13,333 nt of DNA from Spirochaetota bacterium (GCA_023406985.1 JAEXTK010000293.1:1-13333); one strand, 5' to 3'; positions 43 to 13,333 are shown, counted from the first letter of the stretch. Notes: generated from the sequence alone by a model not told the origin. A program made the numbers and translations.

Positions 43-516
43 CTATCGGCCTTCAAAGGCGGCCTTGAGATCCGCGATGACGAGCTTGCGCATCGTGAAC
101 ATCGCCGCCGTCATCCGCCCCTTCGCGGCGGCGTCCTCGCTCTCCATCATCTCGATGAGCGCGCGGGGCACGACCTGCCAGGTGACGCCGAATTTGTCGT
201 CGATCCAGCCGCACTGACTCGGCGTGCCGCCGTCGGCGAACGCGTCCCAGTACTTGTCCACCTCGGCCTGATCCGCGCAGCTCACGACGAAGGATACGGC
301 CGGCGAGAACCGGTAGACCGGCCCGCCGTTCAAGGCCGTGAAGCGTTGACCGCCGATCCGGAAATCCACGGTCATGACCGAACCGGCGGGGCCGGGGCCC
401 TCGCTTCCGTAGCGCACCACCGAATCGATGCCGGAATCCGGAAACAGGGAAACGTAGAACCGCGCGGCCTCTTCGGCCGCGTCCGCGAACCAGAGGAACG
501 GGGTGATCTTCTGCAT
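43..516 (-). CDS. VOC-superfamily protein, PhnB-like (3-demethylubiquinone-9 3-methyltransferase-like domain, glyoxalase/bleomycin-resistance fold)
   Basis: 157-aa ORF. The N-terminus MQKITPFLWF... and overall composition are characteristic of the PhnB-like/PF06983 family. A strong SD (GAGGGAGGAG) sits 5-6 nt upstream of the ATG on the minus strand. GC3-biased codon usage. Confidence 0.8.
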   Translation of the reverse strand: MQKITPFLWFADAAEEAARFYVSLFPDSGIDSVVRYGSEGPGPAGSVMTVDFRIGGQRFTALNGGPVYRFSPAVSFVVSCADQAEVDKYWDAFADGGTPSQCGWIDDKFGVTWQVVPRALIEMMESEDAAAKGRMTAAMFTMRKLVIADLKAAFEGR

Positions 517-636
517 GGCTCCTCCCTCGGGGCCGAGCGCCCCGGAACGAGTTCAATGATAGCGGCGCCGGGGATACGCGGGCGGCATGTTTCCGCCATT
601 CTTGGGGGGAGTTTGCGACAACGGGGATGGAGCTCC

Positions 637-720
637 CGGAGCGGCGCTCGCGGAGCGGCGCGCAGCGAGTCGCCCTCAGGGAGCGGCGCTCACGGAGCGG
701 CGCTCACGGAGCGGCGCGGA
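637..720. repeat. Six tandem copies of a 14-bp unit (consensus CGGAGCGGCGCTCA), each with palindromic core GAGCGgCGCTC. Copy 3 is degenerate.
   Basis: Read directly from the sequence. The units are 637-650, 651-664, 665-678 (degenerate), 679-692, 693-706 and 707-720. The array overlaps the last five codons and the stop (704-706) of the minus-strand response regulator, then continues into its 3' flank. Confidence 0.85.
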
Positions 721-2311
721 ATTCCGTCGGGGTCAAGCCGGTCTCGCGCTTGAAGATCGCGCCGAAATAACGGTGATCGGCGTAGCCGACCAAGTCGGCG
801 ATCTCGGCGAGCTTCTTGTCGGTAGACCGGAGCAGCTCTTTGGCCCGCTCCACGCGATAACCGGCCAAGTACTCCACGAAGCCCACCCCGAACTCCTTCT
901 TCATGATCTTGCTGAGATAGCTCCGGCTCATGCCGAGCTCGTCGCAGAGGATCCCCACGCTGAGGTCCGCTTCAGCGTACCGCTCGGCGACCGAGCGGCG
1001 TATCTCCGCGGCGCGGCGGGCGGCGGGATCGGCGCGGCGATCGAGGAGCGCGGACGAGATCTCCCCGCAGGCCGCGGCCATGGCGCGCTCCAGGTCTTCG
1101 AGCCTCCGCATGCCGGCGAAGGGTTTCGTGTGGTCGATCCCCGCGAGCGCTTCCAGGTCGTCCCGCGCGATGCCGAGCGCCTCGGCGGCATCCAGGAGCG
1201 CGAAGACGAGGCGCCGCGTTTCCAGGTCCGCGCGGTCAGGCCGCGGAGAAGAGGCGCGGAGCGCCGCGGCGAATTCCTCCACCGCGGCGAGGGCGTCTTC
1301 CCGAGAAGACGAGAGCGCGAGGGACAGGCGTTCCGCGGAGCGGCGGAGGCGGGGATCGCCGCCCGTGTCGGGCGGGAGGTCTTCCCACCGGACGGGGCGC
1401 CCGTCGCCTGACTTCAGGAAGCGGGTCTTCAAGGCTTCCTCGGCCTGGGATCGCGATAGGGGAATTCCCGCCGCGCCCGCGGCGATGCCGCCGACCGCGA
1501 GGAGCGCTTCCGGCCCCGCGGCCGCGCGGAGCCGGGCCGCCGCGATCTCCGCGTAGGCCCTGAGCCCTTCGCGGAGCGAAGCCTCGTCGTTCGCCGAGAC
1601 CAAGGACGCGGCCAGGCGGGTACCGCCGTCCCGATCGGACTCGTACGCGAAGACCGCCGTCTCCAGCCGGCCGCGGACCGCGTCCTCCAGCGCCGCGAGG
1701 GCGGCGGAGAGCGCCGCGTCGGCGTCCGCGCGGGGCAGCCCCCCGTCGATTTCGGCGAGGAGCACGGCGTAGACGGGGGCGGACAGGGCGGCGCTCTCCA
1801 CGGAGCGCCAGGCGACGAGCTCCTCGTCGGAGAGACGGCCCGACAGAAGGGCTCCGAGCGCTCGTTCGCGGCGGAACCGCTCCGCGGTTTCGGCGAGCGC
1901 TTCCAGGTTTTGGTTTCGGTCGCGCTCCGCCTTCCCCGAATCGAGGCGCTCCTTGAGCCGCAGGAAGAGGGCGCGGATATCCTTGGCGGAGACGGGTTTC
2001 AGGAGGTATTCGGCCACGTTCCGCCGGATGGCTTCCCGCGCGTATTCGAACTCGTCGTAACCGGAGAGGATGACGACGACGGCGTGCGGCAGATGTTCCT
2101 GGGCCCAGAGCGCGAGCTCCAGGCCGTCGGCCACGGGCATGCAGATATCGGTGAGCACCACGTCCGGTTGTTCCCGGCCCGCGACCTCCATCGCCTCGCG
2201 TCCGTCGGCGCAGGCTCCGACGAGACGAAAACCGACGGCGGCCCAGTCCACCCGATCGGCGAGTCCGCAGCGGATGATCTCTTCATCGTCGACGATCAAG
2301 ACCTTGTACAT
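704..2311 (-). CDS. Two-component response regulator, CheY-like receiver + C-terminal AraC-type HTH (YesN-like), with a ~300-aa Ala-rich central region
   Basis: N-terminal MYKVLIVDDEEIIR...DVVLTDICMP...LLKP receiver motifs. C-terminal ...SRSYLSKIMKKEFGVGFVEYLAGYRVERAKELL...ADHRYFGAIFKRETGLTPTEFR is an AraC HTH. I placed the start at the MYK Met (2311) rather than the upstream Met at 2347. Reasons: a minus-strand extended -10 (TGGTATAAT, 2322-2330) sits immediately upstream, and position 2347 falls inside the divergent kinase's putative -35. Confidence 0.85.
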   Translation of the reverse strand: MYKVLIVDDEEIIRCGLADRVDWAAVGFRLVGACADGREAMEVAGREQPDVVLTDICMPVADGLELALWAQEHLPHAVVVILSGYDEFEYAREAIRRNVAEYLLKPVSAKDIRALFLRLKERLDSGKAERDRNQNLEALAETAERFRRERALGALLSGRLSDEELVAWRSVESAALSAPVYAVLLAEIDGGLPRADADAALSAALAALEDAVRGRLETAVFAYESDRDGGTRLAASLVSANDEASLREGLRAYAEIAAARLRAAAGPEALLAVGGIAAGAAGIPLSRSQAEEALKTRFLKSGDGRPVRWEDLPPDTGGDPRLRRSAERLSLALSSSREDALAAVEEFAAALRASSPRPDRADLETRRLVFALLDAAEALGIARDDLEALAGIDHTKPFAGMRRLEDLERAMAAACGEISSALLDRRADPAARRAAEIRRSVAERYAEADLSVGILCDELGMSRSYLSKIMKKEFGVGFVEYLAGYRVERAKELLRSTDKKLAEIADLVGYADHRYFGAIFKRETGLTPTEFRAAP

Positions 2312-2321
2312 AACCCGGAGG

Positions 2322-2330
2322 ATTATACCA
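2322..2330 (-). promoter_or_regulatory. Putative extended -10 (TGnTATAAT) for the response-regulator gene, implying a near-leaderless transcript
   Basis: The minus-strand sequence reads ...gatgGTGGTATAATcctccgggttATG. The perfect TATAAT lies 10 nt upstream of the ATG at 2311. No SD is seen. Confidence 0.35.
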
Positions 2331-2346
2331 TCGATCCGGACTCTCA

Positions 2347-2375
2347 TTGACGCCGGGCTGAGCGGATACGATACT
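2347..2375 (+). promoter_or_regulatory. Putative sigma70-type promoter for the histidine kinase (TTGACG -35, 17-nt spacer, GATACT -10)
   Basis: TTGACG at 2347-2352 and gATAcT at 2370-2375 with a 17-nt spacer. The region is AT-rich relative to the genome. SD GAGGTG (2389-2394) lies 6 nt before the ATG at 2401. Confidence 0.3.
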
Positions 2376-2400
2376 TTTAAAAAACAGTCGAGGTGCCCCG

Positions 2401-3549
2401 ATGGGTGATGCCGGTCTATTCGCGTACGTGAAGATCCAGGGAGCGCAACAACTCGTCACGGTTCCGATTTCCTCGGGAAAGCCCGAAGTCGCCGATGCCG
2501 TGCAGGAACGATGGCAGGGCGTCGTCGACCTCGTCGCCGGCATACTGCACGTGCCGACCGGGCTCATCACCCATCTCACGACCACCGACCTGGAGATATT
2601 CGTCGCGAGCCGGACCGCGGGAAATCCCTACAAACGCGACGACAAGGACAAGCTCGGGATCGGCATGTTTTGCGAATCCGTCGCCGGGACCCAGCGGCGC
2701 CTCTTGGTCGCCGATACCGAGAGCTCGGCTTACTGGAAAAACAACCCGCACGCCGCCCTGGGGATGCGCGCCTACCTGGGCGTCCCCATCCGTTGGGAAG
2801 ACGGGGAACTCTTCGGCACCTTCTGCATGCTGGACGAGAAGGCGAATTCCTTCTCCGCCGAGTTCATCGATTTGATGGAGCGCTTCAAGGACATCATCGA
2901 ATCCGATCTCCGGTACCTCCTCCTCTACAAGGACCTGGAAAGACGCCTATCCGCCAGCCAGATGGAGCTCCGGGAGATCCACCATCGGCTCAAGAACCAA
3001 TTCAACATCCTGACCAGCTACATCAGCCTCCAGTCGCAGGTAGGGCGCCCCGAGAATCTGCAGGATACCCTCAAGGAAATCCAGCACCGGATCATGGCCC
3101 TCTCCATCATCCACGACGAGCTGTACCGGTCCGACGGGATGACCTTGCCCTCGCTGGACGTGTATCTCCCCCGTCTCTGCCGCTACATCCTGGAGGACTT
3201 CGCCGACGCCGACGTGGACGCCGCCTACTCCATCGCCGATCTGGATCTCCCCATGAACGCCGCGATTTCCATCGCGATCATGGTCTCCGAGCTGCTCACC
3301 AACTCCATCAAGCACGCGTTCACCGCGACGCAGGAAAAGAGGATCAGCCTCACGGTCCAACGGACGGACGCGGGACCCGTCTCCCTCGTCTACCGCGACA
3401 ACGGAAGGGGACTCCCCGCCGGCTTCGATCCCGCCACGGCCCCCTCGCTCGGCATGACCCTGCTCAACGCCCTCAGCGCGCAGCTCGGCGGCTCGATGCG
3501 CGCCGCCAACGACGGCGGCGCCGTCTTCATTTTCGAATTGTCGCTTTAG
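2401..3549 (+). CDS. Soluble sensor histidine kinase: N-terminal GAF-like domain + HisKA_2 dimerisation/phospho-acceptor + HATPase_c
   Basis: H-box EIHHRLKNQFNILTSYISLQS (HisKA_2 type). N-box SELLTNSIKHAF. G1 box YRDNGRGLPAGFD. G2 box GMTLLNALSAQLGGS. No TM segments. The N-terminal 180 aa have GAF-like composition. SD GAGGTG upstream. Confidence 0.85.
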   Translation: MGDAGLFAYVKIQGAQQLVTVPISSGKPEVADAVQERWQGVVDLVAGILHVPTGLITHLTTTDLEIFVASRTAGNPYKRDDKDKLGIGMFCESVAGTQRRLLVADTESSAYWKNNPHAALGMRAYLGVPIRWEDGELFGTFCMLDEKANSFSAEFIDLMERFKDIIESDLRYLLLYKDLERRLSASQMELREIHHRLKNQFNILTSYISLQSQVGRPENLQDTLKEIQHRIMALSIIHDELYRSDGMTLPSLDVYLPRLCRYILEDFADADVDAAYSIADLDLPMNAAISIAIMVSELLTNSIKHAFTATQEKRISLTVQRTDAGPVSLVYRDNGRGLPAGFDPATAPSLGMTLLNALSAQLGGSMRAANDGGAVFIFELSL

Positions 3550-3609
3550 AAGAACCCGCCGGAGCGTTATATTGAACCGTGCCGACAGGTATAAAATCCG
3601 GAGGAAAAT

Positions 3610-5235
3610 ATGTTCGTCGACCGCCTGCTGAAGCATTACCCGAATCCGGACTATGAGCTCAGGTCCAAGATGACCATCTTCGCCGCCCTTTCGCTCTTCT
3701 CGGCGGCCCTCGCTCCGGTCATCGGGACCATCGATATATTCGCGGGGGCCGAGCCCGCCATCATCGTCATGGAGTTCGTCTTCCTCCCCGTGATCCTGGC
3801 CCCGCTCTTCCTCGCCATCCGCGGCCGCTACGACCTCGGCGTCGCGCTCTACCTCGTCCTGCTCGACCTGGTCTTCCTCGCGACCACCCTGGTCCTGCCC
3901 GTCTACAATCCCGAGATCATCTATAAATACGCCTTCTACCTGATCCTCTCCCAGCTCTTGGGCCTCGTCATAGCCCGCGACAAGAGTTCCATCATCGCGA
4001 ACCTCGTCCTGAACGCGGGATCCCAAGTGCTCGTATTCGTCCTGCTCGGCCTCGCGCCCGCCCACGCGGACCTCCGCGGCCTCTCCACGACGGCCTTCGT
4101 CGAGACGACCATGATGCTCGCCTTCACGAGCTTCCTCTCCCTCCGCGGCTCGCGCATCTTCTCCCACGCCATCGACATGGCGCGGAGCGAGGCGGAACGG
4201 TCCCGGGCCCGTGCCGCGGGGATGGAGCAGGCGGTGGCGGCGGCCCGGTCCAGCTTGGACGTGGGCAGGGAGCTGTTGGCCATATCCAAGAAGATCGAGG
4301 CCCTGACGGTCGAACGGGAACGGAGCATGCAGGAGCTGGAGTCCCTGTCCGCGGCGTTCCAGGCCCGCCTGGACCAACTCGCGGAAGAAAACCGAAAGCT
4401 CCGTAACACCGCTTCCGACAGCGAGACGATACTCGGCGCCCAGGAACGGGCGATCGAAGAGACGAACGGCGCGGTCGGCGGCGTGTCGGAGGCCATAGCC
4501 GCGGCCCAGGCCATGGCGCAGCAGCGGCGCGCCGCGGTCCAGGCCCTGCTCGCGGCCTCGGAAGAGGGCGTCAAGCGCCGCGCCGAGGTGACGAAGGCCC
4601 TGGAAAAACTCGGCGAGAGCATCCAGGGCGAGATGACCTTCGTCGGCCTCATAGAGGACGTGGCGTCGCGCACCAACCTCCTGGCCATGAACGCCTCCAT
4701 CGAGGCGGCCCACGCGGGCAACGCGGGACGGGGGTTCTCGGTCGTCGCGGCCGAAATCCGTAAACTCGCGGAGCGAAGCACGGAGGAGACCAAAGGCATC
4801 GCCGCGGTGGTGGCCGCGAACCGGGATTCCCTCGGACGTACGGGGCAGGCGAACGTGGAGGCGGAGGCGCAGTTCGGCACCCTCGTCGGGGAGGCCAAGG
4901 AAGTGGCGGAGGCGATGGGCGAACTCCTCGACCGCCTCTCCGGCATGTCGCGCGGGGCGCACCTCATCGACGGCAAGGTGCGCGACCTCCTCAGCACCTC
5001 CCAGCGGTTCGACGCGGCGTTCAAGGAGATCATCGCGATCTCGGGCAGCAACGACGCCGAATTCGCGGAGATGCTGCCCTTCTTCCGCGATCTTTCCTCC
5101 CGCGTTTCCGCCGACCTGGCCGCGATGCAGGCCATCGGCGAGGAGGCTCGGCGGATTGCGGAAGCCGGGAAACGCAACGCGGAGCGGACCGAGGCCCTCA
5201 ACGCCGCCATGGCCGCCCTCGCCCCGGATCGGTAG
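3610..5235 (+). CDS. Methyl-accepting chemotaxis protein with polytopic (approx 6-TM) N-terminal membrane domain
   Basis: Highly conserved MCP signalling motif [43 protein letters not shown]. Ala/Glu-rich coiled-coil heptads surround it. N-terminal 185 aa are hydrophobic with multiple TM helices. SD GGAGG 5 nt before the ATG. Confidence 0.9.
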
Positions 5236-5283
5236 CGCGCGGGACGGTAGCGCCGCTGCGGGGAACGAGGCTATAAAAGGTTC

Positions 5284-6195
5284 ATGATGAACCAAACCGA
5301 AAAGTCCTCGTTCTCCGCCGTGGCCCTGGGCGCCGTCGTCCTCGTGACCGCGATCTGGGGTTTCAATTTTATCGTGATCAAGGTCGGCGTCGCGGGCGTC
5401 CCGCCGCTGCTCCTCGCCTCACTGCGGTTCGCGCTGAGCGCCTTCCCGGCCCTGCTCTTCGTGAAGAAACCCCAAGCCTCCTGGCTATCGCTCGCCGCCT
5501 ACGGGCTCCTCCTCGGCGTCGGCGAATTCGGCCTCCTCTTCACCGCCATGAAGCTCGGCGCTCCCGCGGGCCTCTCTTCCATAATTCTCCAGGCCCAAGC
5601 CTTCTTCACCGCCCTGGTCGCCGCGGCGGCGCTCAAGGAAAAGCTCCATATCCACAACTTCGCCGGCATGGCGGTCGCGGGCGGCGGCCTCGCGCTCATC
5701 GCGCTCTCGGGCCGCAGCGGGCCGGCCCCGGCCCTGACGGCGGGGCTCACCGCCATGATCCTCCTCGCGGCCTTCTTCTGGGCGCTCGCGAACGTCGTCG
5801 CGCGGCGGATGCCCAAGACCGACGGCCTCTCGCTCATGGTCTGGTCCAGCCTCTTTTCGCCCCTGCCCCTCCTCGGCCTCTCCTTCGCCTTGGAAGGAAA
5901 GGAGGCCATAGCAGCGGCCTTCTCCGGCCTCGCGCCCGTCTCCATCGGCGCCCTCGCCTACCTCGTCCTCCTGTCCACGCTCTTCGGCTACGGCGCGTGG
6001 AACCAGCTCATCATGCGCTACGGCGCGAGCCGCGTGGCGCCGTTTTCCCTCCTCGTGCCCATCTTCGGGGTGAGTTCGGGCGCCCTCGTGCTCGGCGAGC
6101 GCTTCTCCGTCCTCGACGCCGCGGCGGCCGGCCTCGTACTCGCGGGCCTCGCCCTCCACGTGTTCGGGGGACGACTCCGCAAGACCCCGGCCTGA
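5284..6195 (+). CDS. EamA/DMT-family (RhaT-like) 10-TM permease
   Basis: 303-aa protein. Two tandem halves, each with 5 hydrophobic segments typical of duplicated EamA domains (...GFNFIVIKVGV... / ...WALANVVARRMPKTDG...). The start is a tandem ATGATG preceded by TATAAAA (5272-5278). Confidence 0.8.
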   Translation: MMNQTEKSSFSAVALGAVVLVTAIWGFNFIVIKVGVAGVPPLLLASLRFALSAFPALLFVKKPQASWLSLAAYGLLLGVGEFGLLFTAMKLGAPAGLSSIILQAQAFFTALVAAAALKEKLHIHNFAGMAVAGGGLALIALSGRSGPAPALTAGLTAMILLAAFFWALANVVARRMPKTDGLSLMVWSSLFSPLPLLGLSFALEGKEAIAAAFSGLAPVSIGALAYLVLLSTLFGYGAWNQLIMRYGASRVAPFSLLVPIFGVSSGALVLGERFSVLDAAAAGLVLAGLALHVFGGRLRKTPA

Positions 6196-6210
6196 AGGAC
6201 CGGCGGCCGA

Positions 6211-6239
6211 TCGGCGCGGCGGATCGACGCCGGCGCCGA
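6211..6239. terminator. Possible GC-rich bidirectional hairpin between convergent genes (no U-tract)
   Basis: tcggcgcggcg / gatcga loop / cgccggcgccga forms an 11-bp stem with one bulge. It lies between the EamA stop (6195) and the hydrolase stop (6249). This is a weak call. No T-run, as expected in 70% GC DNA. Confidence 0.2.
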
Positions 6240-6248
6240 CAGACGCCC

Positions 6249-7052
6249 CTAGGGAGTCTTGATCCAGTCCCGAACGAGGGCGGCCGTCTCGTGCGCCCGC
6301 TCGTCGAAGGGGAAGAGGTGGCCCGCGCCGGCGAGCCGTACGGCCTGGAACGACGAGGCTGCCTTGGCCCGCTGGCGGACCAGGTCGGCCACCTCCGCGG
6401 GAACGACGGGGTCCTCCGCTCCCACGATCACGAGGACGCGGGAGCGGAGGTCGCGTAGGCGGCTACCGCAGGCCAGCATGAGCCTGCCGAGCTCGGCGGC
6501 GGGAGCCACGAGGTCGTCGGCCCAATACTCGCCGTGAAGGGTTTCCCGGATCGGGTCCCCCCGGTCCCCCGCGGCGAGGGGCCGGTCGCGCCGCAGCACC
6601 GGCCGCACCAGACCTACGAGCCGCGCGAGCGTGAGGTTCTGGCCCGTCACCTTGAACGCCGGGGCGAGCAGCGCGAGCTTGGGGGCGCCGAAGGCGGCGG
6701 CCACGGCCGTGGCCAGGAGGCCGCCCATGGAGTGGCCGACCACGTGGACGGTGGGGTACGCGGCGCGGAGGTCCATGTACGCGTCGAAGGCCCGCCGCGC
6801 CCAGTCCTCGGCCCGGGTCAGCATGAGGTCGGCCCTGCTGGTCCCGTGTCCCGGATAGCGCGGCGCCGAGACGGCGTAGCCTTCGGCGGCCAAGGAGGCC
6901 GCGATGACGGACAATTCCGAGGGATTCCCCGTGAACCCGTGGAGGAGGAGCACGGCTTCCTTCGCGCCCGCGGGATCTTCCCGTATGGGCAAAACGTCCC
7001 GTATGGGCCGCGTTTCGGGCGCCGTCCGTAAAAGAGCTTCCAAGCGTGTCAT
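6249..7052 (-). CDS. Alpha/beta-hydrolase fold carboxylesterase/lipase-like protein
   Basis: Oxyanion-hole motif LLLHGFTGNP. Nucleophile elbow VVGHSMGGLLA (G-x-S-x-G). C-terminal AGHLFPF contains the His of the triad. Similar in size (267 aa) and organisation to Est30-type esterases. No convincing SD before the ATG at 7052. Confidence 0.8.
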   Translation of the reverse strand: MTRLEALLRTAPETRPIRDVLPIREDPAGAKEAVLLLHGFTGNPSELSVIAASLAAEGYAVSAPRYPGHGTSRADLMLTRAEDWARRAFDAYMDLRAAYPTVHVVGHSMGGLLATAVAAAFGAPKLALLAPAFKVTGQNLTLARLVGLVRPVLRRDRPLAAGDRGDPIRETLHGEYWADDLVAPAAELGRLMLACGSRLRDLRSRVLVIVGAEDPVVPAEVADLVRQRAKAASSFQAVRLAGAGHLFPFDERAHETAALVRDWIKTP

Positions 7053-7107: not shown

Positions 7108-7158
7108 TTGACACATTGTACTAGTTCAATTAGCATTGTACTAGATGAATAGTACAAT
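7108..7158 (+). promoter_or_regulatory. Promoter (TTGACA-17-TAGCAT) for the GntR gene, overlaid by three copies of ATTGTACTA (two direct, one inverted). The inverted pair forms a perfect 9-6-9 palindrome spanning the start codon, so this is a probable autoregulatory operator and the transcript is leaderless.
   Basis: TTGACA is at 7108-7113 and TAGCAT at 7131-7136. ATTGTACTA occurs at 7115-7123 and 7135-7143. Its inverse TAGTACAAT is at 7150-7158, with spacer gATGaa containing the ATG at 7145. The predicted TSS at ~7143 lies 2 nt from the ATG. Confidence 0.45.
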
Positions 7159-7540
7159 CGCGAGCCGAGGCGTGGCATTCGGCCTGGACGCGTCGAGCGG
7201 GGTACCGTTCTACCGCCAGATCATCCAGCAGATCGAGCGCGCCATCCTCGCGCGGAAGCTCGAACCGGGGGATCGGCTGCCGACGATCAGGGCTCTCGCC
7301 GTGGAGCTCAAGATCAACCCCAACACCATCGCCCGGGCCTACGGCGAGCTGGAGATACGCGGCATCGTCGTCACCCAGGTCGGCAGCGGGACGTACATCT
7401 CGGACCAGAGACCTGAGCGCGAGGACGCGCGCGCCAAGAAACTCGCCGAGGTCGTGGCCCGGTTCGTTCGCGACACGGAGGCCCTGGGCGCGGACAGGGA
7501 CGAGGCGATCCGGCTCGTCCGCGAGTTCAAGGAGGACTGA
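7145..7540 (+). CDS. GntR-family transcriptional regulator, short YtrA-like subfamily
   Basis: The protein is 131 aa. The N-terminal winged HTH is FYRQIIQQIERAILARKLEPGDRLPTIRALAVELKINPNTIARAYGELEIRGIVVTQVGSGTYIS. The C-terminal extension is short (~50 aa), typical of YtrA-type regulators that control adjacent ABC transporters. Confidence 0.85.
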   Translation: MNSTIASRGVAFGLDASSGVPFYRQIIQQIERAILARKLEPGDRLPTIRALAVELKINPNTIARAYGELEIRGIVVTQVGSGTYISDQRPEREDARAKKLAEVVARFVRDTEALGADRDEAIRLVREFKED

Positions 7541-7541
7541 C

Positions 7542-8720
7542 ATGTGGTCGTTTCGGAAAAACAGCGAAGAGCCTCTCGTCCATAACCCCCGGCGCCCCGA
7601 ACGCCGCGTTGATTTCTCCATCAACGCCGTCGGCCTCATCCTCTTCTGCGCCCTCGTCGTCTTCACGCTGGCCGCCCGCCTCCTCGCGGGAGCGCGGCCG
7701 TCCGCCCTCGATTTCGGCGCCCTCGTCGCGACGCCGGTCGCCACGGTCGCCGTCATGTCGCTCTTCCCCCGCTGGGTCACCGCCGTGAAGTTGTTGATCC
7801 TGGTCGCCTGCGCGGGCGCGGCGTGGGCCCTCGTCGACTCGGGCCTGCTCCTCGCCTTCGCCGCGGCGGGCGCCCTGCTGGCGCCGGCGGTCCAGAAGCT
7901 GGAAGAATGGGAGCGGGCCATCGTCCTCCGCTTCGGCCGCTTCCACCGCGTCCGGGGGCCGGGGCTCTACCTGCTCCTGCCCTTCGCCGATCGCGCGGCC
8001 AAGACCGTGGACCTCCGCATCCGGGTGACCGACTTCAGCGCCGAGACCACCCTGACCCGGGACTCGGTCACGGTGACCGTGGACGCCCTCTGCTTCTGGC
8101 TCGTCTGGGACGCCGAGAAGGCGGTCCTGGAAGTCCAGGACTACGAGGAGGCCGTGGTGCTGTCCGCCAAGACGGCCCTCCGCGCCGCCATCAGCCGGAA
8201 CAACCTCACCGCCTTCCTGGAGCAGGGGAACGAGATCGAGAACCAGATCCGCGCGGACGTGGATATGAAGACCACCGAGTGGGGCATCACCGTCCAGCAC
8301 ATCGAGATCACCGATATCCAGATACCCGAGCAGCTGCAGGACTCCCTCTCCCGCCTCGCCCAGGCGGAGCGGGAAAAGATGGGGCGCGTGCTCCTGGCCG
8401 AGGCGGAGATCGAGATCGCCCATCGCCTGGAGACCGCGGCCAAGATCTACGAAAAGAACGACCTCGCCATGAAGCTCAAGACCCTCTCCATCCTCAACGA
8501 GGGCCTCAAGGCGGGCAATTCCATGATGCTCGTCCCCAACTCGATCACCGAAGAATTGAAATCGAAGGACCTTTTCGGCCTGCAGGCGCTCACCGAGACG
8601 CGGCTCCACGCGGAAGGCAAGCGGCCGCGGAATCGCGCCGGCCAACCCTCCAGTAACGCACCGGGGCGGCCGCAGGATGTATCTTCCGAACCCAAGGAGG
8701 ACGGCCATGACCGTCGTTAA
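7542..8720 (+). CDS. SPFH/band-7 (stomatin/prohibitin/HflK-like) membrane protein with a 4-TM N-terminal region and a disordered basic C-terminal tail
   Basis: SPFH core: EEWERAIVLRFGRFHRVRGPGLYLLLPFADRAAKTVDLRIRVTDFSAETTLTRDSVTVTVDALCFW...ISRNNLTAF...DVDMKTTEWGITVQHIEITDIQIPEQLQDSL...AQAEREK. It is followed by a coiled-coil (AEAEIEIAH). Four hydrophobic helices precede the SPFH domain. GGAGG lies 6 nt before the ATG. The ATG sits 1 nt after the GntR stop. Confidence 0.8.
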   Translation: MWSFRKNSEEPLVHNPRRPERRVDFSINAVGLILFCALVVFTLAARLLAGARPSALDFGALVATPVATVAVMSLFPRWVTAVKLLILVACAGAAWALVDSGLLLAFAAAGALLAPAVQKLEEWERAIVLRFGRFHRVRGPGLYLLLPFADRAAKTVDLRIRVTDFSAETTLTRDSVTVTVDALCFWLVWDAEKAVLEVQDYEEAVVLSAKTALRAAISRNNLTAFLEQGNEIENQIRADVDMKTTEWGITVQHIEITDIQIPEQLQDSLSRLAQAEREKMGRVLLAEAEIEIAHRLETAAKIYEKNDLAMKLKTLSILNEGLKAGNSMMLVPNSITEELKSKDLFGLQALTETRLHAEGKRPRNRAGQPSSNAPGRPQDVSSEPKEDGHDRR

Positions 8721-9432
8721 CGCAAGAGACCTCGTGAAGGATTATTCCCTCAACGGGATTACGGTGAACGCCCTGCGGGGCGTGAGCCTCTCGTTCGAGG
8801 CGGGCGAGTTCGCCGCCGTGGCCGGCCCCTCGGGGAGCGGGAAATCGACCTTCCTGCACCTCGTCGGCTGCCTGGACACGCCGACGGCGGGCTCCATCTC
8901 CATAGACGGCACCGACGTGGCGTCCTTGAGCCGGAAGGACCTGGCCCTGCTCCGCAGGCGGAGCATCGGCTTCATCTTCCAGGCCTACAACCTCATCCCG
9001 GTGCTGACCGCCCTGGAGAACGTTTCCCTGCCGCTCACGCTGCTCGGCGTGGACCGGGAGGAGACGCGCGGCAGGGCGGAGCGGGCGCTCGCGGACGTGG
9101 GCCTGGCCGACATGGGGAAGCGCAAGCCCAAGGAGATGTCGGGCGGCCAACAACAGCGCGTCGCCATAGCCCGCGCGCTCGTGAAGCGGCCGGCCCTCAT
9201 CCTGGCCGACGAGCCCACGGCGAACCTGGACTCCAAGACCGGCAAGGAGATCCTGGAGCTCATGCTCGACCTCAACCGGACCGCGGGCACGACCTTCATC
9301 TTCTCCACCCACGACAAGATGGTCATGGAGTACGCGCGGCGCCTCGTGCTCCTCAAGGACGGAAGGGTGGATGCGGAGACGGTGCGGGACGCGGCAGGCG
9401 CGGAGGCCGTAGCCGCGGGAGCCGCGCGATGA
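8707..9432 (+). CDS. ABC transporter ATP-binding protein, LolD/MacB-NBD/FtsE-like
   Basis: Walker A GPSGSGKST. Q-loop IGFIFQ. Signature MSGGQQQRVAIARAL. Walker B LILADEPTANLD. H-loop FSTHD. I chose the start at 8707 (AAGGAGG 6 nt upstream) over the ORF-track start at 8677. The CDS overlaps the SPFH gene 3' end by 14 nt. Confidence 0.9.
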   Translation: MTVVNARDLVKDYSLNGITVNALRGVSLSFEAGEFAAVAGPSGSGKSTFLHLVGCLDTPTAGSISIDGTDVASLSRKDLALLRRRSIGFIFQAYNLIPVLTALENVSLPLTLLGVDREETRGRAERALADVGLADMGKRKPKEMSGGQQQRVAIARALVKRPALILADEPTANLDSKTGKEILELMLDLNRTAGTTFIFSTHDKMVMEYARRLVLLKDGRVDAETVRDAAGAEAVAAGAAR

Positions 9433-11159
9433 CCGCCGCGGCGTTCCGGGACCTCGCGGGGATGGCGCTCCGCAATCTCGCGCGGCATAAGGTCAAGACG
9501 ATCATCACGACCATCGCCGTGGCCATCAGCGTCGCCCTCTACATCTTCATGGACGCGTGGCTGCTCGGCATGAACCTGGACTCCCGCCGGAACATCGTCT
9601 CCTACGAGATCGGCGCCGCGAAAGTCCAGAAGGCCGCGTACTTCGACAAGAAGGACGAGCTGCCCATGTACGAGAGTTTCGGCGGCTGGGAAGAGCTCGC
9701 GGCCGCGCTCGCCGCGGCGGGGTACGATTCGGCGCCCCGCTTCGTGTTCACGGGCACCCTCTACTCCCGCTCGGGTACCGCGCCCATCGTGTTCAACGCC
9801 GTGGACGTGGAGCGGGAGGCGAAGCTCCTCCGCTACCCCGCCTACCTCGAGTCCGGCCGCTTCCCCGCCGCGGGAAAGCGCGAAATCGCCATCGGCACCT
9901 TCGCGGCGGAGAAGCTCCGCGTCGGCATCCCGACCCGGCCCACCCGCGACGAATTCGAGGACGACCTCCTCGCCGCGGCCGCGACCGCGGAGGACGCGGC
10001 CTTCGTCCGGAGCCTCTACGGGCCGCCGCCGCCGCCCAAGAAGCAGGCCTTTTCCAACCCTGATCCCGCTTTGCGCTCGCTCGCGGCGGAGAAGCTCGCC
10101 CTCAAGGAGGGCGCGACCGCCGCTGAACTCGACCGCCTCTGGCGCATCCTCTCGGAATCCGGCCGCATGGATGTCCGCATCGCCACCACCATCGACCTCA
10201 AGGCCGCCCCGGAAATCATCCGCAAGGAAAAGTTCGAGGGGGAACTCCTCGCGAAACTAGAAGGGAGCGCCCGCGAGCGGCTCCGCGCCGCCTACGCGGC
10301 GGACGAGATCACCGGGGACTACCGCCTCGTCGCCGTCGACGAGGCGGAGGTGGCCGCGGTACTCGCGGATCTGCTGGCGATCGACTTCTCGGGGGCCGTA
10401 CGGCACGTGAACCAGCTCGTGGACGCCGTAGTCGTCGGCGTCGTCAACTCGCCCAACCCCAAGACGAACGGCAACGTCGCCTTCCTGCCCCTGGACGCCT
10501 TGCAGGACGAATCGGGCCTCATGCTCCAGGGCGCGGCGACCGAGCTCCTCGTGCGGAAGGCCGGCGCGGACGACGCGCGCCTGCCGGGCAGGGACGAGTC
10601 GGCGGAGGCGATCGAGGCGGCCCTCGCCTCCCGCCTGGGGGGGAAGCTCCCGGAAGGCCTCGTCGTGCGGCCCTGGATCGATTATGTATCCGATTACCTC
10701 GCGGCCGCGGCGGGCGACAACGTGTCCTCGCGGGTCATGATCTTCTTCCTCTTCGTCCTCTCCTTCATCGGGATCGCCAACACCATGCTCATGGCCATCC
10801 TGGAACGGACCAAGGAGACGGGCATGCTCCGCGCCCTCGGCATGACGGACGGCCAGGTCCTCCTGGCCTACGTGCTGGAGGCCGCCTGCATCGGCGCCCT
10901 CGGATCCGCGGTCGGCATCGTCGCGGGGTGCCTCATGAACATCCCGATGGTGGAACACGGCATCGATTATTCGGCGATGTCCAAGGAATTGGGCGGCGAC
11001 TTCGGCTACCGCATCACCGCGTTCTTCCGATCCGCCTGGAATCCCCCGGCCATCGCGCTCACCGGCGTCTTCGCGACCCTGCTCTCCGCGGCGGCCGCGA
11101 TCCTGCCCACCCGCAGGGCCCTCAAGATGCCCGTGACCGACAGCCTGCGGTTCGAATAG
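9429..11159 (+). CDS. FtsX/MacB/LolC-E-type ABC permease with a ~380-aa periplasmic domain between TM1 and TM2
   Basis: N-terminal LRNLARHKVKTIITTIAVAISVALYIF (TM1). C-terminal 3-TM FtsX block: ...MIFFLFVLSFIGIANTMLMAILERTKETGMLRALGMTDGQVLLAYVLEAACIGALGSAVGIVAG... The start overlaps the ATPase stop (ATGA). Confidence 0.85.
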   Translation: MTAAAFRDLAGMALRNLARHKVKTIITTIAVAISVALYIFMDAWLLGMNLDSRRNIVSYEIGAAKVQKAAYFDKKDELPMYESFGGWEELAAALAAAGYDSAPRFVFTGTLYSRSGTAPIVFNAVDVEREAKLLRYPAYLESGRFPAAGKREIAIGTFAAEKLRVGIPTRPTRDEFEDDLLAAAATAEDAAFVRSLYGPPPPPKKQAFSNPDPALRSLAAEKLALKEGATAAELDRLWRILSESGRMDVRIATTIDLKAAPEIIRKEKFEGELLAKLEGSARERLRAAYAADEITGDYRLVAVDEAEVAAVLADLLAIDFSGAVRHVNQLVDAVVVGVVNSPNPKTNGNVAFLPLDALQDESGLMLQGAATELLVRKAGADDARLPGRDESAEAIEAALASRLGGKLPEGLVVRPWIDYVSDYLAAAAGDNVSSRVMIFFLFVLSFIGIANTMLMAILERTKETGMLRALGMTDGQVLLAYVLEAACIGALGSAVGIVAGCLMNIPMVEHGIDYSAMSKELGGDFGYRITAFFRSAWNPPAIALTGVFATLLSAAAAILPTRRALKMPVTDSLRFE

Positions 11160-11168
11160 GAGTCCTCT

Positions 11169-12443
11169 ATGGAAAAGACCGTAACCGAGCGCGGCGGAAT
11201 CGCCGCCCTCGTCACGATAGCGTACCGGAACATCTGGCGGAACGGCCGGCGGACCGCGCTCTGCGTCGTCGCCGTGGCCATCGCCGTCTTCTTCAACATC
11301 TTCATGGGATCCTGGATGGACGGCATGATGACGGGCATCGAGGAGGTCGTGCGGACCTACGAGACGGGCCACGTCAACGCGGTGACCGAAAAGTTCGAGG
11401 AGGATCGGGAATACTACCCGGTCCAGTTCCCCATTGCCGGCGGCCGCGCCTCCGACGAACTCGTCGCCGAGCTGGAGGCCATCCCCGGGGTGCAGGCCGC
11501 CCTGCCGCGGATCACCGCCTACGCGACCCTCTTCGACAGCAACGTGAAGCACGCCCTCCTCTGGGGCGTGGACATCGAAAAGGAGCGGAAGGTCAACCAT
11601 CTCAACCTCACCGACCGCGACGACGGCCTCGTTTCGGGGCGCTTCCCCGCGGCGGGGGCGAACGAGTGCATGATCGGCGCCGAGATGGCGCGGAAAACCG
11701 GCCTCGGCGTGGGGGACCGCCTACCCTTCAAGACCGTATCCGCCCAGTTCTCGGACAAGTACCTGAGCCCGGCCATCGTCGGCATCTTCGAATTCGATTA
11801 CCGCAAATTCGACGAGGACGTCGTCCTCCTTCCCCTGGACCGGTTGCAGCGCATCCTCGTGCTCGACGGCGGAACCCAGCAACTGTTCGTCTACGCCGAC
11901 GACGCCCGCGAGAGCGCGCGGATCAAGGTCCAGGTGGAGAAGGTCTTGGGAGAAGGCCACGTCGTGCGGGAATGGGGGGACAACTACTGGGTCGCCATGA
12001 TGCGGCAGAGTTCCTTCATGTTCCTCATCATCTTCGGCGTGTTCCAGATCGTGGCCAGTTTCCTCATCATCAACACGGTCCTCATGGTGATCCACGAACG
12101 CATCAAGGAGATCGGCATGATGGGCGCGCTCGGGATGACCCGGCGCGAGATCGTGCTCGTCTTCTTCTTCGAGGCGGTGTTCCTGAGCGTGTTCGGGGCG
12201 CTCGCGGGCTGCGCCGTCGGGGGCCTCGTGACGCGGATCGGGTCCTACTTCCCCATCGACATGCAAGTCTTCACCGGCGGCGGCATGAAGGACATGCCGG
12301 TCTCCGGCACCATCTTCCTGGATTTCTCGCCCGCGGGCATCGGCCGGAGTTTCCTCTTCGGGGTGGCGGTCTCGGGGGCGTGCACGCTCATCCCCTCGCT
12401 CAAGAGCGCCTTCATCGAACCCGTGGAAGCCCTCCGCCGTTGA
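11169..12443 (+). CDS. Second FtsX/LolC-E-type ABC permease (approx 225-aa periplasmic domain)
   Basis: TM1 is ALCVVAVAIAVFFNIFMGSW. FtsX block: FMFLIIFGVFQIVASFLIINTVLMVIHERIKEIGMMGALGMTRREIVLVFFFEAVFLSVFGALAGCAVGG. SD AGGAG lies 6 nt upstream. A 9-nt gap separates it from the preceding permease. Confidence 0.85.
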   Translation: MEKTVTERGGIAALVTIAYRNIWRNGRRTALCVVAVAIAVFFNIFMGSWMDGMMTGIEEVVRTYETGHVNAVTEKFEEDREYYPVQFPIAGGRASDELVAELEAIPGVQAALPRITAYATLFDSNVKHALLWGVDIEKERKVNHLNLTDRDDGLVSGRFPAAGANECMIGAEMARKTGLGVGDRLPFKTVSAQFSDKYLSPAIVGIFEFDYRKFDEDVVLLPLDRLQRILVLDGGTQQLFVYADDARESARIKVQVEKVLGEGHVVREWGDNYWVAMMRQSSFMFLIIFGVFQIVASFLIINTVLMVIHERIKEIGMMGALGMTRREIVLVFFFEAVFLSVFGALAGCAVGGLVTRIGSYFPIDMQVFTGGGMKDMPVSGTIFLDFSPAGIGRSFLFGVAVSGACTLIPSLKSAFIEPVEALRR

Positions 12444-12474
12444 GGCCGGGCCATCGCAGCACAAGGAGAATGAT

Positions 12475-13245
12475 ATGAACGATACGTTTCGCGGTATTCC
12501 CCGCATGAACTTCCCGGCGGCGGCCGCCGTCTTGACGCTCGCGTTGATCGCCTTCCCTGCGGCGGCCGCCCCGACCGCGGCCGAGCTGCTCGCGAAGGTG
12601 GACGAGAACGAGGTGTACGACAGCATCGCCTACAAGGGCGAGATGATCATCGAGTACCAGGGCAAGCGCTTCGTCAAGAAGTTCGAGGCGGCCGGGAACG
12701 GCGAACAGGACAGCTTCGTGGAGTTCGTGAACCCCGAGGACAAGGGGACCAAGTACCTCAAGAAGGACGGACGGCTCTACGTGTATTCGCCCGATACCGA
12801 AGAGGTCATGCTCATCTCCGGCCATCTGCTCAAGGAATCGATGATGGGTTCGGACATGTCGTACGAGGATACGATCGACAACGAGAAACTGTCGGCCCGC
12901 TACGTCCCGACGCTCGCGGGCACGGAAGCCTACGAGGGGAGGCAGGCCTACCTCCTGGACCTCGCGGCCAAGAAGAAGACGGAGAGCTATCCGCGGCAGA
13001 AGCTCTGGATCGATACGGAGACGGGCGACCTCCTCCACTATGAGCTCTTCGCCCTCTCGGGCGCCAAGCTCAAGGAGTACAAGCTCATCCGCGCCGAGCT
13101 CATCGGGAAGCGCCGCTTTCCCGTGGAGGGAGAGATGCGCGACCTCCTCCGCAAGGGCAGCCGCACCCTCTTCCGCATGTACGACGTGAAGCTGGACGTC
13201 GCCATCCCCGACTCCACCTTCAGCCTCAGGAACCTGGAACGATGA
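12475..13245 (+). CDS. Secreted LolA-like / outer-membrane lipoprotein-sorting-protein-like periplasmic protein
   Basis: Signal peptide MNFPAAAAVLTLALIAFPAAAAP with no lipobox Cys, so it is soluble periplasmic. ~230-aa mature beta-rich domain with alternating hydrophobic/polar strands (YKGEMIIEYQGKRFVKKFEAAG...KLWIDTETGDLLHYELFALSGAKLKEYKL). This matches the LolA-like family commonly encoded next to FtsX permeases. SD AAGGAGA is 5 nt upstream. Confidence 0.65.
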   Translation: MNDTFRGIPRMNFPAAAAVLTLALIAFPAAAAPTAAELLAKVDENEVYDSIAYKGEMIIEYQGKRFVKKFEAAGNGEQDSFVEFVNPEDKGTKYLKKDGRLYVYSPDTEEVMLISGHLLKESMMGSDMSYEDTIDNEKLSARYVPTLAGTEAYEGRQAYLLDLAAKKKTESYPRQKLWIDTETGDLLHYELFALSGAKLKEYKLIRAELIGKRRFPVEGEMRDLLRKGSRTLFRMYDVKLDVAIPDSTFSLRNLER

Positions 13246-13333
13246 GGGCGCGCGATCGTTTCGGCGCGGCGGCGCGCGGCGCGGCCCCCCGCACCCTTCT
13301 CGCGGCCCTGGTCCTGGCCACGGCGGCGGGCCC
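13242..13333 (+). CDS. 5' end of a gene encoding a putative exported protein, truncated by the window end
   Basis: The ATG overlaps the LolA-like stop (ATGA). The N-terminus MRARDRFGAAARGAAPRTLLAALVLATAAG looks like a signal peptide. Only 30 codons are visible. Confidence 0.3.
   Translation, partial: MRARDRFGAAARGAAPRTLLAALVLATAAG

Follow-up and report, generated by a model that had tools for sequence, protein, structure and literature searches.

Why would a GntR-type repressor and a stomatin-like SPFH protein be encoded together with an ABC machine resembling the lipoprotein-release system, and what would such an operon move? The question arises from a 13,333-nucleotide stretch of a Spirochaetota genome (JAEXTK010000293.1:1-13333, hereafter the window), in which positions 7108-13333 form a real seven-gene operon on the plus strand. 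The operon is conserved widely across spirochaetes, and the same gene order appears in dozens of independent loci, so the arrangement is far beyond chance. The literature that we searched holds no experimental data on any member of the operon and, in keeping with the first-pass annotation, describes no combination of SPFH with a Lol-like module. We consider it probable that the operon is a repressor-gated unit joining a GntR-SPFH module to a trans-envelope transport line. Its function is most likely the inducible outward transport of lipidic cargo.

The open reading frame, Pfam, and sequence checks agree with the first-pass annotation on all seven genes, on the family of each, and on every junction. 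Profiles for GntR, Band_7, FtsX, and LolA_like all matched, and MacB_PCD passed in the second permease only. The GntR stop and SPFH start read TGAcATG in the sequence, SPFH overlaps the ATPase gene by 14 nt with AGGAGG 7 nt upstream of the ATG at 8707, and the ATPase gene runs into permease 1 through ATGA (9429-9432). A 9-nt gap, with TAGGAG overlapping the stop codon, separates the two permeases, a 31-nt gap with AAGGAG precedes the LolA-like gene, and ATGA (13242-13245) joins the latter to the seventh gene. Terminator-like hairpins within the operon were not in excess (6 versus 3.5 ± 1.9 expected), and all of them lie within coding sequence.

Promoter scanning, repeats, and conservation together delimit a promoter with two operator palindromes at 7108-7158 on the plus strand. 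Coordinate 7108 is the first base of the TTGACA -35 hexamer (7108-7113) of a promoter-like site whose -10 element, TAGCAT, occupies 7131-7136 (10 of 12 positions matched in the scan). Operator O1, ATTGTACTAGTTCAAT (7115-7130), sits inside the -35/-10 spacer, and operator O2, ATTGTACTA-N6-TAGTACAAT (7135-7158), contains the GntR ATG at 7145. Both palindromes are built on GTAC, with inverted as well as direct repeats detected. Allowing at most one mismatch, TTGTACTAG occurs four times in the window, always within 7116-7157, versus 0.18 matches expected. The 51-nt promoter/operator consensus, TTGACatATTGTACTAGTaCAatTAnaATTGTACTAGATGAaTAGTACAAt, is present in 43 loci. At one locus (L110) the same operator lies directly 5' of the ABC gene, GntR and SPFH are absent, and the ATG inside the operator opens an ORF of only 7 codons. 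Hence, conservation of this ATG may reflect the operator sequence rather than a start codon. The GntR ATG lies 9 nt downstream of the -10 box, at the expected transcription start and without a Shine-Dalgarno sequence, so the GntR mRNA is probably leaderless. The gene caller chose an alternative start, GTG at 7172.

The first gene (7145-7540) encodes a 131-aa protein in which a winged helix-turn-helix at residues 23-85 is followed by a C-terminal tail of ~45 residues without an effector domain. PF00392 (E 2.8e-17) is its sole significant Pfam domain, two other HTH families being sub-threshold, and its C-terminal part has no FCD, UTRA, or aminotransferase domain. Its best NCBIfam matches, Rv1152 and PmtR, are short regulators of the YtrA type, and both score below cut-off. 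The short length, the position at the head of an ABC operon, and the palindromic operator (a predicted site) bear out the earlier assignment to the YtrA subfamily. YtrA regulons usually consist of one ABC-transporter operon with long palindromic sites, and described sites are mostly single (PMC4494728), whereas two palindromes are present here. GntR would most likely bind both of them, one in the promoter spacer and the other over the transcription start and its own ATG, keeping the whole operon off until an envelope signal releases repression.

The third, fourth, and fifth genes encode the transporter. The stand-alone ATPase (8707-9432, 241 aa) is of the MacB/LolD/FtsE type (ABC_tran E 2.7e-34), and its Walker A, signature, Walker B, and H-loop motifs are intact in the translation. 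Permease 1 (9429-11159, 576 aa) matches FtsX PF02687 at E 3.5e-19, and its MacB_PCD score of 26.5 bits falls slightly below the 27-bit cut-off; its periplasmic domain is enlarged and differs in length between orthologues. Permease 2 (11169-12443, 424 aa) has both FtsX (E 3.5e-16) and MacB_PCD (E 1.3e-16, 62 bits), with a standard MacB-like periplasmic core domain. The FtsX domains, the transmembrane layout with a periplasmic domain between TM1 and TM2, and a competent nucleotide-binding domain place the transporter among the type VII (MacB/FtsX) ABC systems. The nearest solved chains are YtrF (9o9x, E 1.5e-9) and LolE (E 8e-8) for permease 1, and LolC (E 2.1e-11) followed by LolF and LolE for permease 2.

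How closely does this engine follow known precedents? The first-pass annotation had pointed to B. subtilis ytrABCDEF, a comparison that holds for the regulator class and one FtsX-type permease and for nothing beyond those. In both systems a short YtrA-type regulator, an autorepressor in B. subtilis, heads an ABC operon, and YtrF is the nearest solved relative of permease 1. In contrast, ytrGABCDEF belongs to a monoderm host, has two ATPases and different permeases, and lacks a periplasmic carrier, an outer-membrane barrel, and an SPFH gene. The annotation had also described a canonical Lol architecture, and this likeness to E. coli LolCDE-LolA(-LolB) is partly upheld: the ATPase stands alone, the two four-TM FtsX-type permeases differ from each other, and a soluble open-barrel carrier follows. 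However, no equivalog score approaches its cut-off, and the operon is not orthologous to LolCDE-LolA. The top NCBIfam match of the ATPase, LolD (TIGR02211), reaches 230 bits against a cut-off of 307.75, with DarD, FtsE, DevA, and MacB models scoring nearly as well, and the LolC/E model (TIGR02212, cut-off 362.45) scores permease 1 at 51.5 bits and permease 2 at 107.3 bits.

The carrier departs further from the canonical system. The sixth gene (12475-13245) encodes a 256-aa soluble periplasmic protein, a putative carrier, that reaches the Pfam gathering score for PF17131 (E 9e-44) and has the open beta-barrel LolA/LolB fold, confirming that it is LolA-like. A type I signal peptide is indicated by the hydrophobic N-terminus and the AxA-type cleavage site, and the protein has no lipobox cysteine, or indeed any cysteine; most orthologues are alike in this, and a possible lipobox is seen in a few. 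Its enlarged sheet, as in 9tp6, 4z48, 3bk5, and 3buu, is that of the LolA3 class, the top structural match being 4z48, which was deposited as DUF1329 family. A Pfam search gave no match to canonical LolA (PF03548), and a PDB sequence search (E ≤ 0.01) gave none to canonical LolA chains, including spirochaetal BB0346. The LolA3/PF17131 (TP_0789-like) class, which has a type I signal peptide, comprises P. gingivalis LolA3 (PDB 9tp6), F. johnsoniae Fjoh_0605, and the structural-genomics entries 4z48, 3bk5, and 3buu. Judging by locus-tag numbers, T. pallidum TP0789 would adjoin the RND pump TP0790.

Could this operon nevertheless be the organism's housekeeping LolCDE-LolA pathway for lipoprotein release? 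Its stand-alone ATPase, paired permeases, and LolA-fold protein would fit, and among named models or structures LolD, LolCE, and LolC score highest. We regard this as extremely improbable given the distance to every Lol equivalog model and the lack of any sequence match between the carrier and canonical LolA. In Bacteroidota, the larger LolA3 proteins coexist with a housekeeping LolA, do not bind LolB, and are dispensable (PMC13103446, PMC11885536). Moreover, 150 diverse spirochaetes, Treponemataceae among them, are reported to retain a separate canonical LolA (PMC11326224), and the operon studied here is repressor-gated with an SPFH gene in front, which sets it apart from LolCDE-LolA.

The seventh gene (13242-13333) runs past the window edge, and the 30 codons present correspond to a signal peptide. 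A near-identical contig (L001:13236-14495) supplies the full-length protein of 419 aa, ending in KLKF, which is confidently an 18-stranded outer-membrane beta-barrel with a signal peptide and a C-terminal Phe. The earlier label of exported protein was thus too generic, the product being the barrel of a conserved cassette. The family is without a Pfam model: no Pfam match was found at E ≤ 1, and by sequence the barrel belongs to none of the OprD/Occ, AlgE, MOMP, maltoporin, or Wzi families. Distant barrel relatives have only sub-threshold DUF1302, Wzi, or porin matches. Because the seventh protein is an outer-membrane barrel, the cassette spans the inner membrane, periplasm, and outer membrane, unlike LolCDE-LolA, which is not a three-compartment system and ends in the LolB lipoprotein rather than an integral barrel.

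Import systems, too, classically combine a barrel with a periplasmic binding component and an ABC transporter, and substrate-specific uptake channels (OccD/OprD, chitoporin, and maltoporin types) are among the best matches to the barrel. Under such a scheme, the barrel would admit a hydrophobic nutrient, the periplasmic protein would bind it, and the ABC transporter would import it. However, ABC transporters of the FtsX/MacB fold (type VII) offer substrates no path through the membrane, and only extractors or exporters are known among them. Together with a carrier fold that is not of the substrate-binding-protein type, this makes uptake highly improbable.

Other three-compartment arrangements share parts of the cassette. 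In Pseudomonas and Shewanella, genes for DUF1302, DUF1329, RND (COG1033), and BNR proteins show cofitness and have been proposed to export a cell-envelope component (10.1101/072470). These likewise bring together an exporter in the inner membrane, a LolA/LolB-fold protein in the periplasm, and a barrel in the outer membrane, but with a proton-driven RND engine, a BNR propeller, a LuxR-type regulator, and no SPFH; homology of our barrel to DUF1302 is barely hinted at (E 0.003-0.017). The Borrelia burgdorferi lp38 cluster BBJ23-29, known from prediction, has a layout similar to the cassette (PMC13078400), yet differs in its permease homodimer, Omp85-type barrel, two TPR chaperones, and lack of GntR and SPFH. 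A tblastn search with the carrier found no Borrelia plasmid at E ≤ 1e-3, so the two are analogous rather than orthologous. In P. gingivalis and P. intermedia, operons annotated "outer membrane lipoprotein-sorting protein" combine TetR with an MMPL/RND pump and ABC ATPases, and low iron induces them (PMC10434189). These differ from the type VII ABC engine, YtrA-type regulator, and SPFH found here.

If transport is outward, the cargo might be an exogenous amphipathic toxin, such as an antimicrobial lipopeptide, fatty acid, bile-like compound, or plant/lignin compound, taken out of the inner membrane by the ABC engine of an inducible detoxification or efflux pump and expelled through the carrier and barrel. 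Such a pump would do the work of MacAB-TolC with other components. This is a special case of the preferred explanation in which the cargo alone differs, and we hold it as a tentative possibility. Local repressors of the YtrA and TetR types typically gate resistance transporters, and the best regulator matches are PmtR and Rv1152. B. subtilis YtrA responds to lipid II-cycle inhibitors, and the ytr operon is induced by envelope stress (PMC12772383). Occ- and AlgE-type barrels are channels, and the operon is very abundant in termite-gut metagenomes. However, neither the operon nor its orthologous loci contain the membrane-fusion adaptor or TolC-like gene of a MacAB-TolC pump, and shielded LolA-fold carriers typify acylated cell-envelope cargo rather than drugs. 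LolA3-PG, for its part, failed to bind polymyxin B or colistin (PMC13103446). The genes around the operon differ from locus to locus, so genomic context gives no clue to the cargo; only in Breznakiella is an RND/MFP pair close by, and there it is encoded on the other strand.

What, then, does the SPFH protein contribute? The second gene (7542-8720) encodes a 392-aa stomatin-like slipin (Band_7 PF01145, E 4.1e-36, 125.1 bits) that has four hydrophobic segments at its N-terminus, then the SPFH domain and a coiled coil, and finally a tail that is charged and disordered. Residues 94-333 align to human stomatin cage structures (E ~5e-35), a stretch of ~240 residues covering the SPFH domain, coiled coil, and C-terminal region and reaching across all of stomatin's structured part, and the protein also aligns to QmcA (E 3e-27). 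Hydropathy and positive-inside counts place the SPFH domain on the cytoplasmic side. Orthologues across Spirochaetota are 55-82% identical. Prokaryotic stomatins usually have an adjacent NfeD partner gene, and HflKC encloses FtsH. In contrast to stomatin, QmcA, and HflKC, the protein described here, known from its sequence, replaces the single hairpin with four hydrophobic segments at its N-terminus; its gene is grouped with those for a repressor and an ABC machine, and adjoins no NfeD gene at any locus examined.

Conservation ties this SPFH gene to the transporter in related genomes; a lack of such co-conservation is what the first-pass annotation had named as a refutation. The transporter directly follows SPFH in 31 of the 32 spirochaete genome loci with downstream sequence. 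Among metagenome loci located through the carrier gene, 16 of 19 have GntR and SPFH upstream and 48 of 50 have the barrel gene downstream. GntR precedes SPFH at nearly every locus. Breznakiella homolactica and Gracilinema caldarium share the seven-gene order, and a deltaproteobacterial MAG holds all seven components reordered as GntR-SPFH-carrier-FtsX-FtsX-ABC-barrel. This reordered cluster, like the divergent paralogous cassette found behind some GntR-SPFH pairs, speaks for a linkage that goes further than synteny.

The earlier description of SPFH as fused to the transporter did not survive, since GntR-SPFH is an independent two-gene module found across phyla and the cassette exists without it. 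The GntR-SPFH pair stands without the cassette at 10 loci in Planctomycetota, Victivallales, and Pseudomonadota, and one spirochaete SPFH gene (L027) has no adjoining transporter. Conversely, cassettes lack SPFH at L103 and L110, and in Persicobacter the five transport genes stand under TetR, again with no SPFH. Behind some GntR-SPFH pairs lies a divergent paralogous cassette (ABC ~53%, FtsX ~30%, and carrier ~44% identity, with a distant barrel at E 1e-18), and the pairs preceding it are still 69-80% identical. GntR-SPFH and the five-gene cassette are therefore separable evolutionary modules. That SPFH stays nearly constant even where a divergent cassette takes the place of the usual one disfavours a tight, co-evolving contact between SPFH and the pump.

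This modularity might mean that SPFH and the transporter are merely co-regulated, without physical or mechanistic coupling, and that GntR-SPFH is a self-standing membrane-stress module behind whose promoter spirochaetes simply put a transport cassette. SPFH would then act on membrane organisation at large or on other clients. The solitary pairs, the cassettes without SPFH, and the stability of SPFH in front of a paralogue of only 30-55% identity all favor such an arrangement. On the other hand, adjacency and translational coupling, including the 14-nt overlap into the ATPase, are kept across Spirochaetota, and the association recurs in a different gene order in the deltaproteobacterial MAG. 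There is also precedent in stomatin domes that surround membrane transporters (PMC12407830). On balance, we find co-regulation alone rather doubtful.

Under the preferred reading of a repressor-gated transport line, SPFH would most likely assemble into a ring or dome against the inner membrane, on its cytoplasmic side, organising and possibly enclosing a membrane patch that contains the transporter. Within this patch, the type VII engine of one ATPase and a two-FtsX heterodimer would use ATP in the cytoplasm to move its periplasmic domains, pulling a lipidic or amphipathic cargo off the outer face of the inner membrane. The engine would pass this cargo to the soluble LolA3-class carrier, which would bring it to the dedicated 18-strand barrel, where it would be inserted into the outer membrane or cross it.

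A bolder version, which we think unlikely, is that GntR-SPFH is a self-contained membrane-state switch that in spirochaetes gates a previously unrecognised three-compartment route made up of a type VII ABC engine, a LolA3 carrier, and a new 18-strand barrel family. GntR has no ligand-binding domain, and the stomatin-like cage might itself control the repressor, for example by capturing it at the membrane, or letting it go from there, upon a perturbation of the bilayer. The cage would also corral whichever transporter GntR-SPFH drives. If this were true, the three-compartment route could export lipids or surface lipoproteins, filling a gap in the spirochaete surface-lipoprotein route.

Between position 7145 and the end of the window, the forward strand carries seven consecutive open reading frames. 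Pfam searches placed the first in GntR (PF00392, E 2.8e-17), the second in SPFH/Band_7 (E 4.1e-36), the third among ABC ATPases (E 2.7e-34), the fourth (permease 1, 9429-11159) and fifth (permease 2) among FtsX-type permeases (E 3.5e-19 and 3.5e-16), and the sixth, the carrier, in LolA_like (PF17131, E 9e-44). MacB_PCD was clear in permease 2 and just below the cut-off in permease 1. GntR and SPFH are joined by TGAcATG, SPFH overlaps the ATPase gene by 14 nt with AGGAGG ahead of the ATPase start, and ATGA links the ATPase to permease 1 (9429-9432) and the carrier to the seventh gene (13242-13245). Gaps of 9 nt, with TAGGAG, and 31 nt, with AAGGAG, precede permease 2 and the carrier, respectively. 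Terminator-like hairpins were not enriched within the operon, and every one was intragenic. The observation in the first-pass annotation, namely this gene content with each of these junctions, is confirmed by the reading frames, Pfam and sequence reading, including the suggested matches to GntR, Band_7, FtsX and, for the periplasmic protein, the LolA-like model. Its interpretation proved partly right.

The periplasmic domain of permease 1 is ~150 residues longer than that of permease 2 and carries a PPPPP motif and a helical Ala/Glu-rich insert of variable length, with orthologues of 504 to 581 aa. Upstream of the operon (43-7052) lie unrelated signalling and transport genes, none of which is kept beside it in other genomes: a PF06983 methyltransferase-like gene (reverse strand), a response regulator with an AraC HTH (704-2347, reverse strand), a GAF/HWE histidine kinase (2401-3549), a methyl-accepting chemotaxis protein (3610-5235), an EamA transporter (5284-6195) and a divergent alpha/beta hydrolase (6249-7052, reverse strand). 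Rfam and tRNA scans of the window gave no matches. A phage-defence reading was rejected, as PADLOC returned only generic ATPase and permease similarities.

The seventh product, also encoded on the forward strand, has 419 aa, a signal peptide and the C-terminus KLKF. It had no Pfam match even at E 1, and its 103 word-sharing relatives are all annotated as hypothetical. It had been described as an exported protein; it is more exactly an outer-membrane barrel of an unannotated family. At E <= 1e-3, a profile of this family recovered 793 cluster representatives from a set of 1.84 billion proteins, and 100 of them reached E <= 1e-30. Distant members likewise fell in no Pfam family, with only sub-threshold matches to DUF1302, Wzi or porins. 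Two of them, P0453 and P0465, had such matches to DUF1302 (E 0.017 and 0.003), the outer-membrane partner of LolA/LolB-like DUF1329 proteins, a hint that the two barrel families may be remotely related. With a barrel as its seventh gene, the operon therefore supplies inner-membrane, periplasmic and outer-membrane parts.

These parts were compared with the Lol system, whose canonical architecture the core had been said to reproduce. The ATPase reached 230 bits, where the LolD cut-off is 307.75, and the permeases reached 51.5 and 107.3 bits, where that for LolCE is 362.45. Among solved structures, permease 2 is closest to LolC, LolF and LolE, and permease 1 to YtrF and LolE. The carrier, which like most orthologues has a type I signal peptide without a lipobox, matched by sequence only 4z48, 3buu and 3bk5, all from structural genomics, and the new entry 9tp6; no canonical LolA was among its matches to solved structures. 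It belongs to the LolA3 class. LolA3 itself, a larger paralogue with 13 strands, has neither the arginine of LolA nor the leucine of LolB; it does not bind LolB of P. gingivalis and presumably serves a separate function (PMC13103446). Deletion of lolA3 in F. johnsoniae left gliding and type IX secretion unaffected (PMC11885536). Spirochaetes reportedly also have a distinct, canonical LolA, which is conserved in 150 diverse members of the group, Treponemataceae among them (PMC11326224). Judged by its sequences, the system is Lol-like in architecture and is not a member of the Lol family.

Other known systems resemble the operon in part. A MacAB-TolC-type pump was rejected because the operon has neither an adaptor nor a TolC gene. 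In the predicted BBJ23-29 cluster of Borrelia lp38, a LolA-like protein is combined with a MacB-like homodimer and a barrel of the Omp85 type, and SPFH and GntR are absent; orthology with BBJ28 was rejected, as a tblastn search of plasmids with the carrier gave no match to Borrelia lp38. In Pseudomonas and Shewanella, cofit DUF1302, DUF1329, RND and BNR genes have a proposed role in exporting a component of the envelope. P. gingivalis and P. intermedia have TetR-controlled operons, induced by low iron, in which an MMPL pump accompanies an "outer membrane lipoprotein-sorting protein", and T. pallidum TP0789 would, by locus-tag number, adjoin the RND pump TP0790. These four sets are the closest described analogues, and none has an assigned cargo. 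No paper in the literature searched describes such a transport module together with SPFH or with a GntR-SPFH pair, in agreement with the earlier statement that no described system was known to combine SPFH with a Lol-like module.

Three public assemblies hold contigs identical or near-identical to the window, and a 49-kb ENA contig (L001) carries the seventh gene complete. The best 120 database matches to the SPFH protein were all at least 59% identical, and those with names came nearly all from Spirochaetota. In Breznakiella homolactica and Gracilinema caldarium, both with complete genomes, all seven genes recur in unchanged order, with different flanking genes. We scanned one genome per species for SPFH and scored each of the resulting 47 loci in tblastn searches with the seven proteins. 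The ATPase and permeases directly followed SPFH in 31 of the 32 spirochaete loci having downstream sequence, the single locus with SPFH and no transporter being L027, and the set could be traced through the seventh gene in 19 loci. In the reverse direction, an alignment of the carrier gave at least 593 matches in metagenome contigs, many from termite gut; these are close orthologues only (64-79% identical), so the reverse search covers the association among orthologues. GntR and SPFH lay upstream of the carrier in 16 of 19 metagenome loci with enough upstream sequence, and the seventh gene downstream in 48 of 50. Genome and metagenome loci therefore both show SPFH to be co-conserved with the transporter in relatives, and the observation survives one of the refutations proposed with it, a lack of such co-conservation. 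Two sequences with non-spirochaete labels, L041 (Fibrobacteraceae) and P0063 (Magnetospirillaceae), encode SPFH proteins 71-74% identical to the spirochaete protein. Because L041 also bears the spirochaete-type operator, these labels are probably binning errors rather than transfers.

The operon comprises two modules: a GntR-SPFH front module and a cassette of the remaining five genes. In the SPFH scan, GntR directly preceded SPFH in ten loci outside Spirochaetota (L042-L050, L053), with no same-strand transporter in the 1 to 10 kb available downstream. These stand-alone pairs come from Gemmataceae, other Planctomycetota, Phycisphaerae, Victivallales and one Pseudomonadota MAG; a YtrA-type GntR lies ~300-1000 nt upstream of the SPFH match, and the SPFH protein is shorter (311-327 aa). 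One Gemmataceae locus (L044) has two tandem GntR genes before SPFH. In a deltaproteobacterial MAG (L051), GntR-SPFH is followed by carrier, permease, permease, ATPase and a distant barrel homologue (419 aa, E 7e-7), that is, by the same components reordered. Six spirochaete loci (L012, L013, L016, L018, L026, L039) have divergent cassettes, with identities in five of the six of ~53% for the ATPase, ~30% for the permeases and ~44% for the carrier; the barrel was found by profile only (E 1e-18 to 2e-6) in the four with enough downstream sequence. The GntR-SPFH pair ahead of these cassettes retained 69-80% identity, which suggests cassette swapping behind a fixed front module. The cassette also occurs without the front module. 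Plasmid pPP1 of the Bacteroidota species Persicobacter psychrovividus (NZ_AP025293.1, L054:4033-9654) encodes TetR, a barrel homologue (378 aa, E 7.6e-11), ATPase, permease, permease and PF17131 carrier, the same five cassette genes with neither GntR nor SPFH, in a record unannotated there, and two termite-gut contigs have an orthologous cassette with no front module.

Allowing one mismatch, TTGTACTAG matched four times in the window, all at 7116-7157, against 0.18 expected. The four matches make up two palindromes, O1 between the -35 (TTGACA) and -10 (TAGCAT) boxes and O2 spanning the GntR ATG. The 51-nt arrangement TTGACatATTGTACTAGTaCAatTAnaATTGTACTAGATGAaTAGTACAAt was found in 43 loci, with identical spacing in 37, and the O1 half was 80-99% conserved although it lay outside the search pattern. 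Since the ATG is 9 nt past the -10 box and has no Shine-Dalgarno sequence, the GntR mRNA may be leaderless. Public gene calls begin GntR at GTG 7172 (122 aa). Because ATG 7145 is kept in the 43 loci and GntR homology reaches residue 1, the longer form seems more likely, and is probably leaderless. Stand-alone pairs outside Spirochaetota also have a -35/-10 promoter and a palindrome of another sequence abutting the GntR ATG; in planctomycete pairs the position of the palindromes is the same and their sequence differs. On termite-gut contig Ga0268262_10004879 (L110:6015-6095), the full 51-nt promoter/operator directly precedes the ATPase gene; GntR and SPFH are absent, and the ATG inside the operator opens only a 7-codon reading frame. 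The locus resembles either the product of a deletion or an additional cassette that the same repressor controls in trans. In another locus, L103, the promoter differs. Long palindromes and a single ABC operon are usual for YtrA regulons, in which double sites are described as rare (PMC4494728); in B. subtilis, lipid II-cycle inhibitors induce ytrGABCDEF (PMC12772383). By analogy, the putative regulatory design fits YtrA regulons apart from the double site.

SPFH residues 94-333 align with the structured part of human stomatin (E about 5e-35), and these residues also align with PH stomatin and QmcA and only weakly with HflK/C. Its N-terminus has six Lys/Arg, four hydrophobic segments and another Lys/Arg-rich stretch, a layout that puts the SPFH domain on the cytoplasmic side of the membrane, where the ATPase also lies. 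Stomatin domes enclose aquaporin-1 and UT-B (PMC12407830), so a predicted SPFH cage around the ABC complex is a reasonable model. SPFH stays nearly constant in front of swapped cassettes, which speaks against its being in tight, co-evolving contact with the transporter.

The operon is best seen as an inducible, modular envelope system, in which a YtrA/SPFH front end would drive a transport line from a type VII ABC transporter through a LolA3 carrier to an 18-strand barrel, most probably moving lipidic cargo outward. The LolA3/PF17131 class, to which no function is assigned, thereby gains a partner set: an engine of the type VII ABC kind together with an unannotated family of barrels that has about 800 cluster representatives. 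The survey also brought to light a cross-phylum GntR-SPFH pair, which could explain how YtrA repressors without an effector domain detect the state of the membrane, and what role falls to prokaryotic stomatins that have no NfeD. Two cultured species whose genomes are complete, Breznakiella homolactica and Gracilinema caldarium, carry the operon, so it is open to testing. For spirochaetes, which have no LolB, the operon is a complete candidate line from inner to outer membrane, and a candidate route by which lipids and surface lipoproteins may reach or cross the outer membrane.
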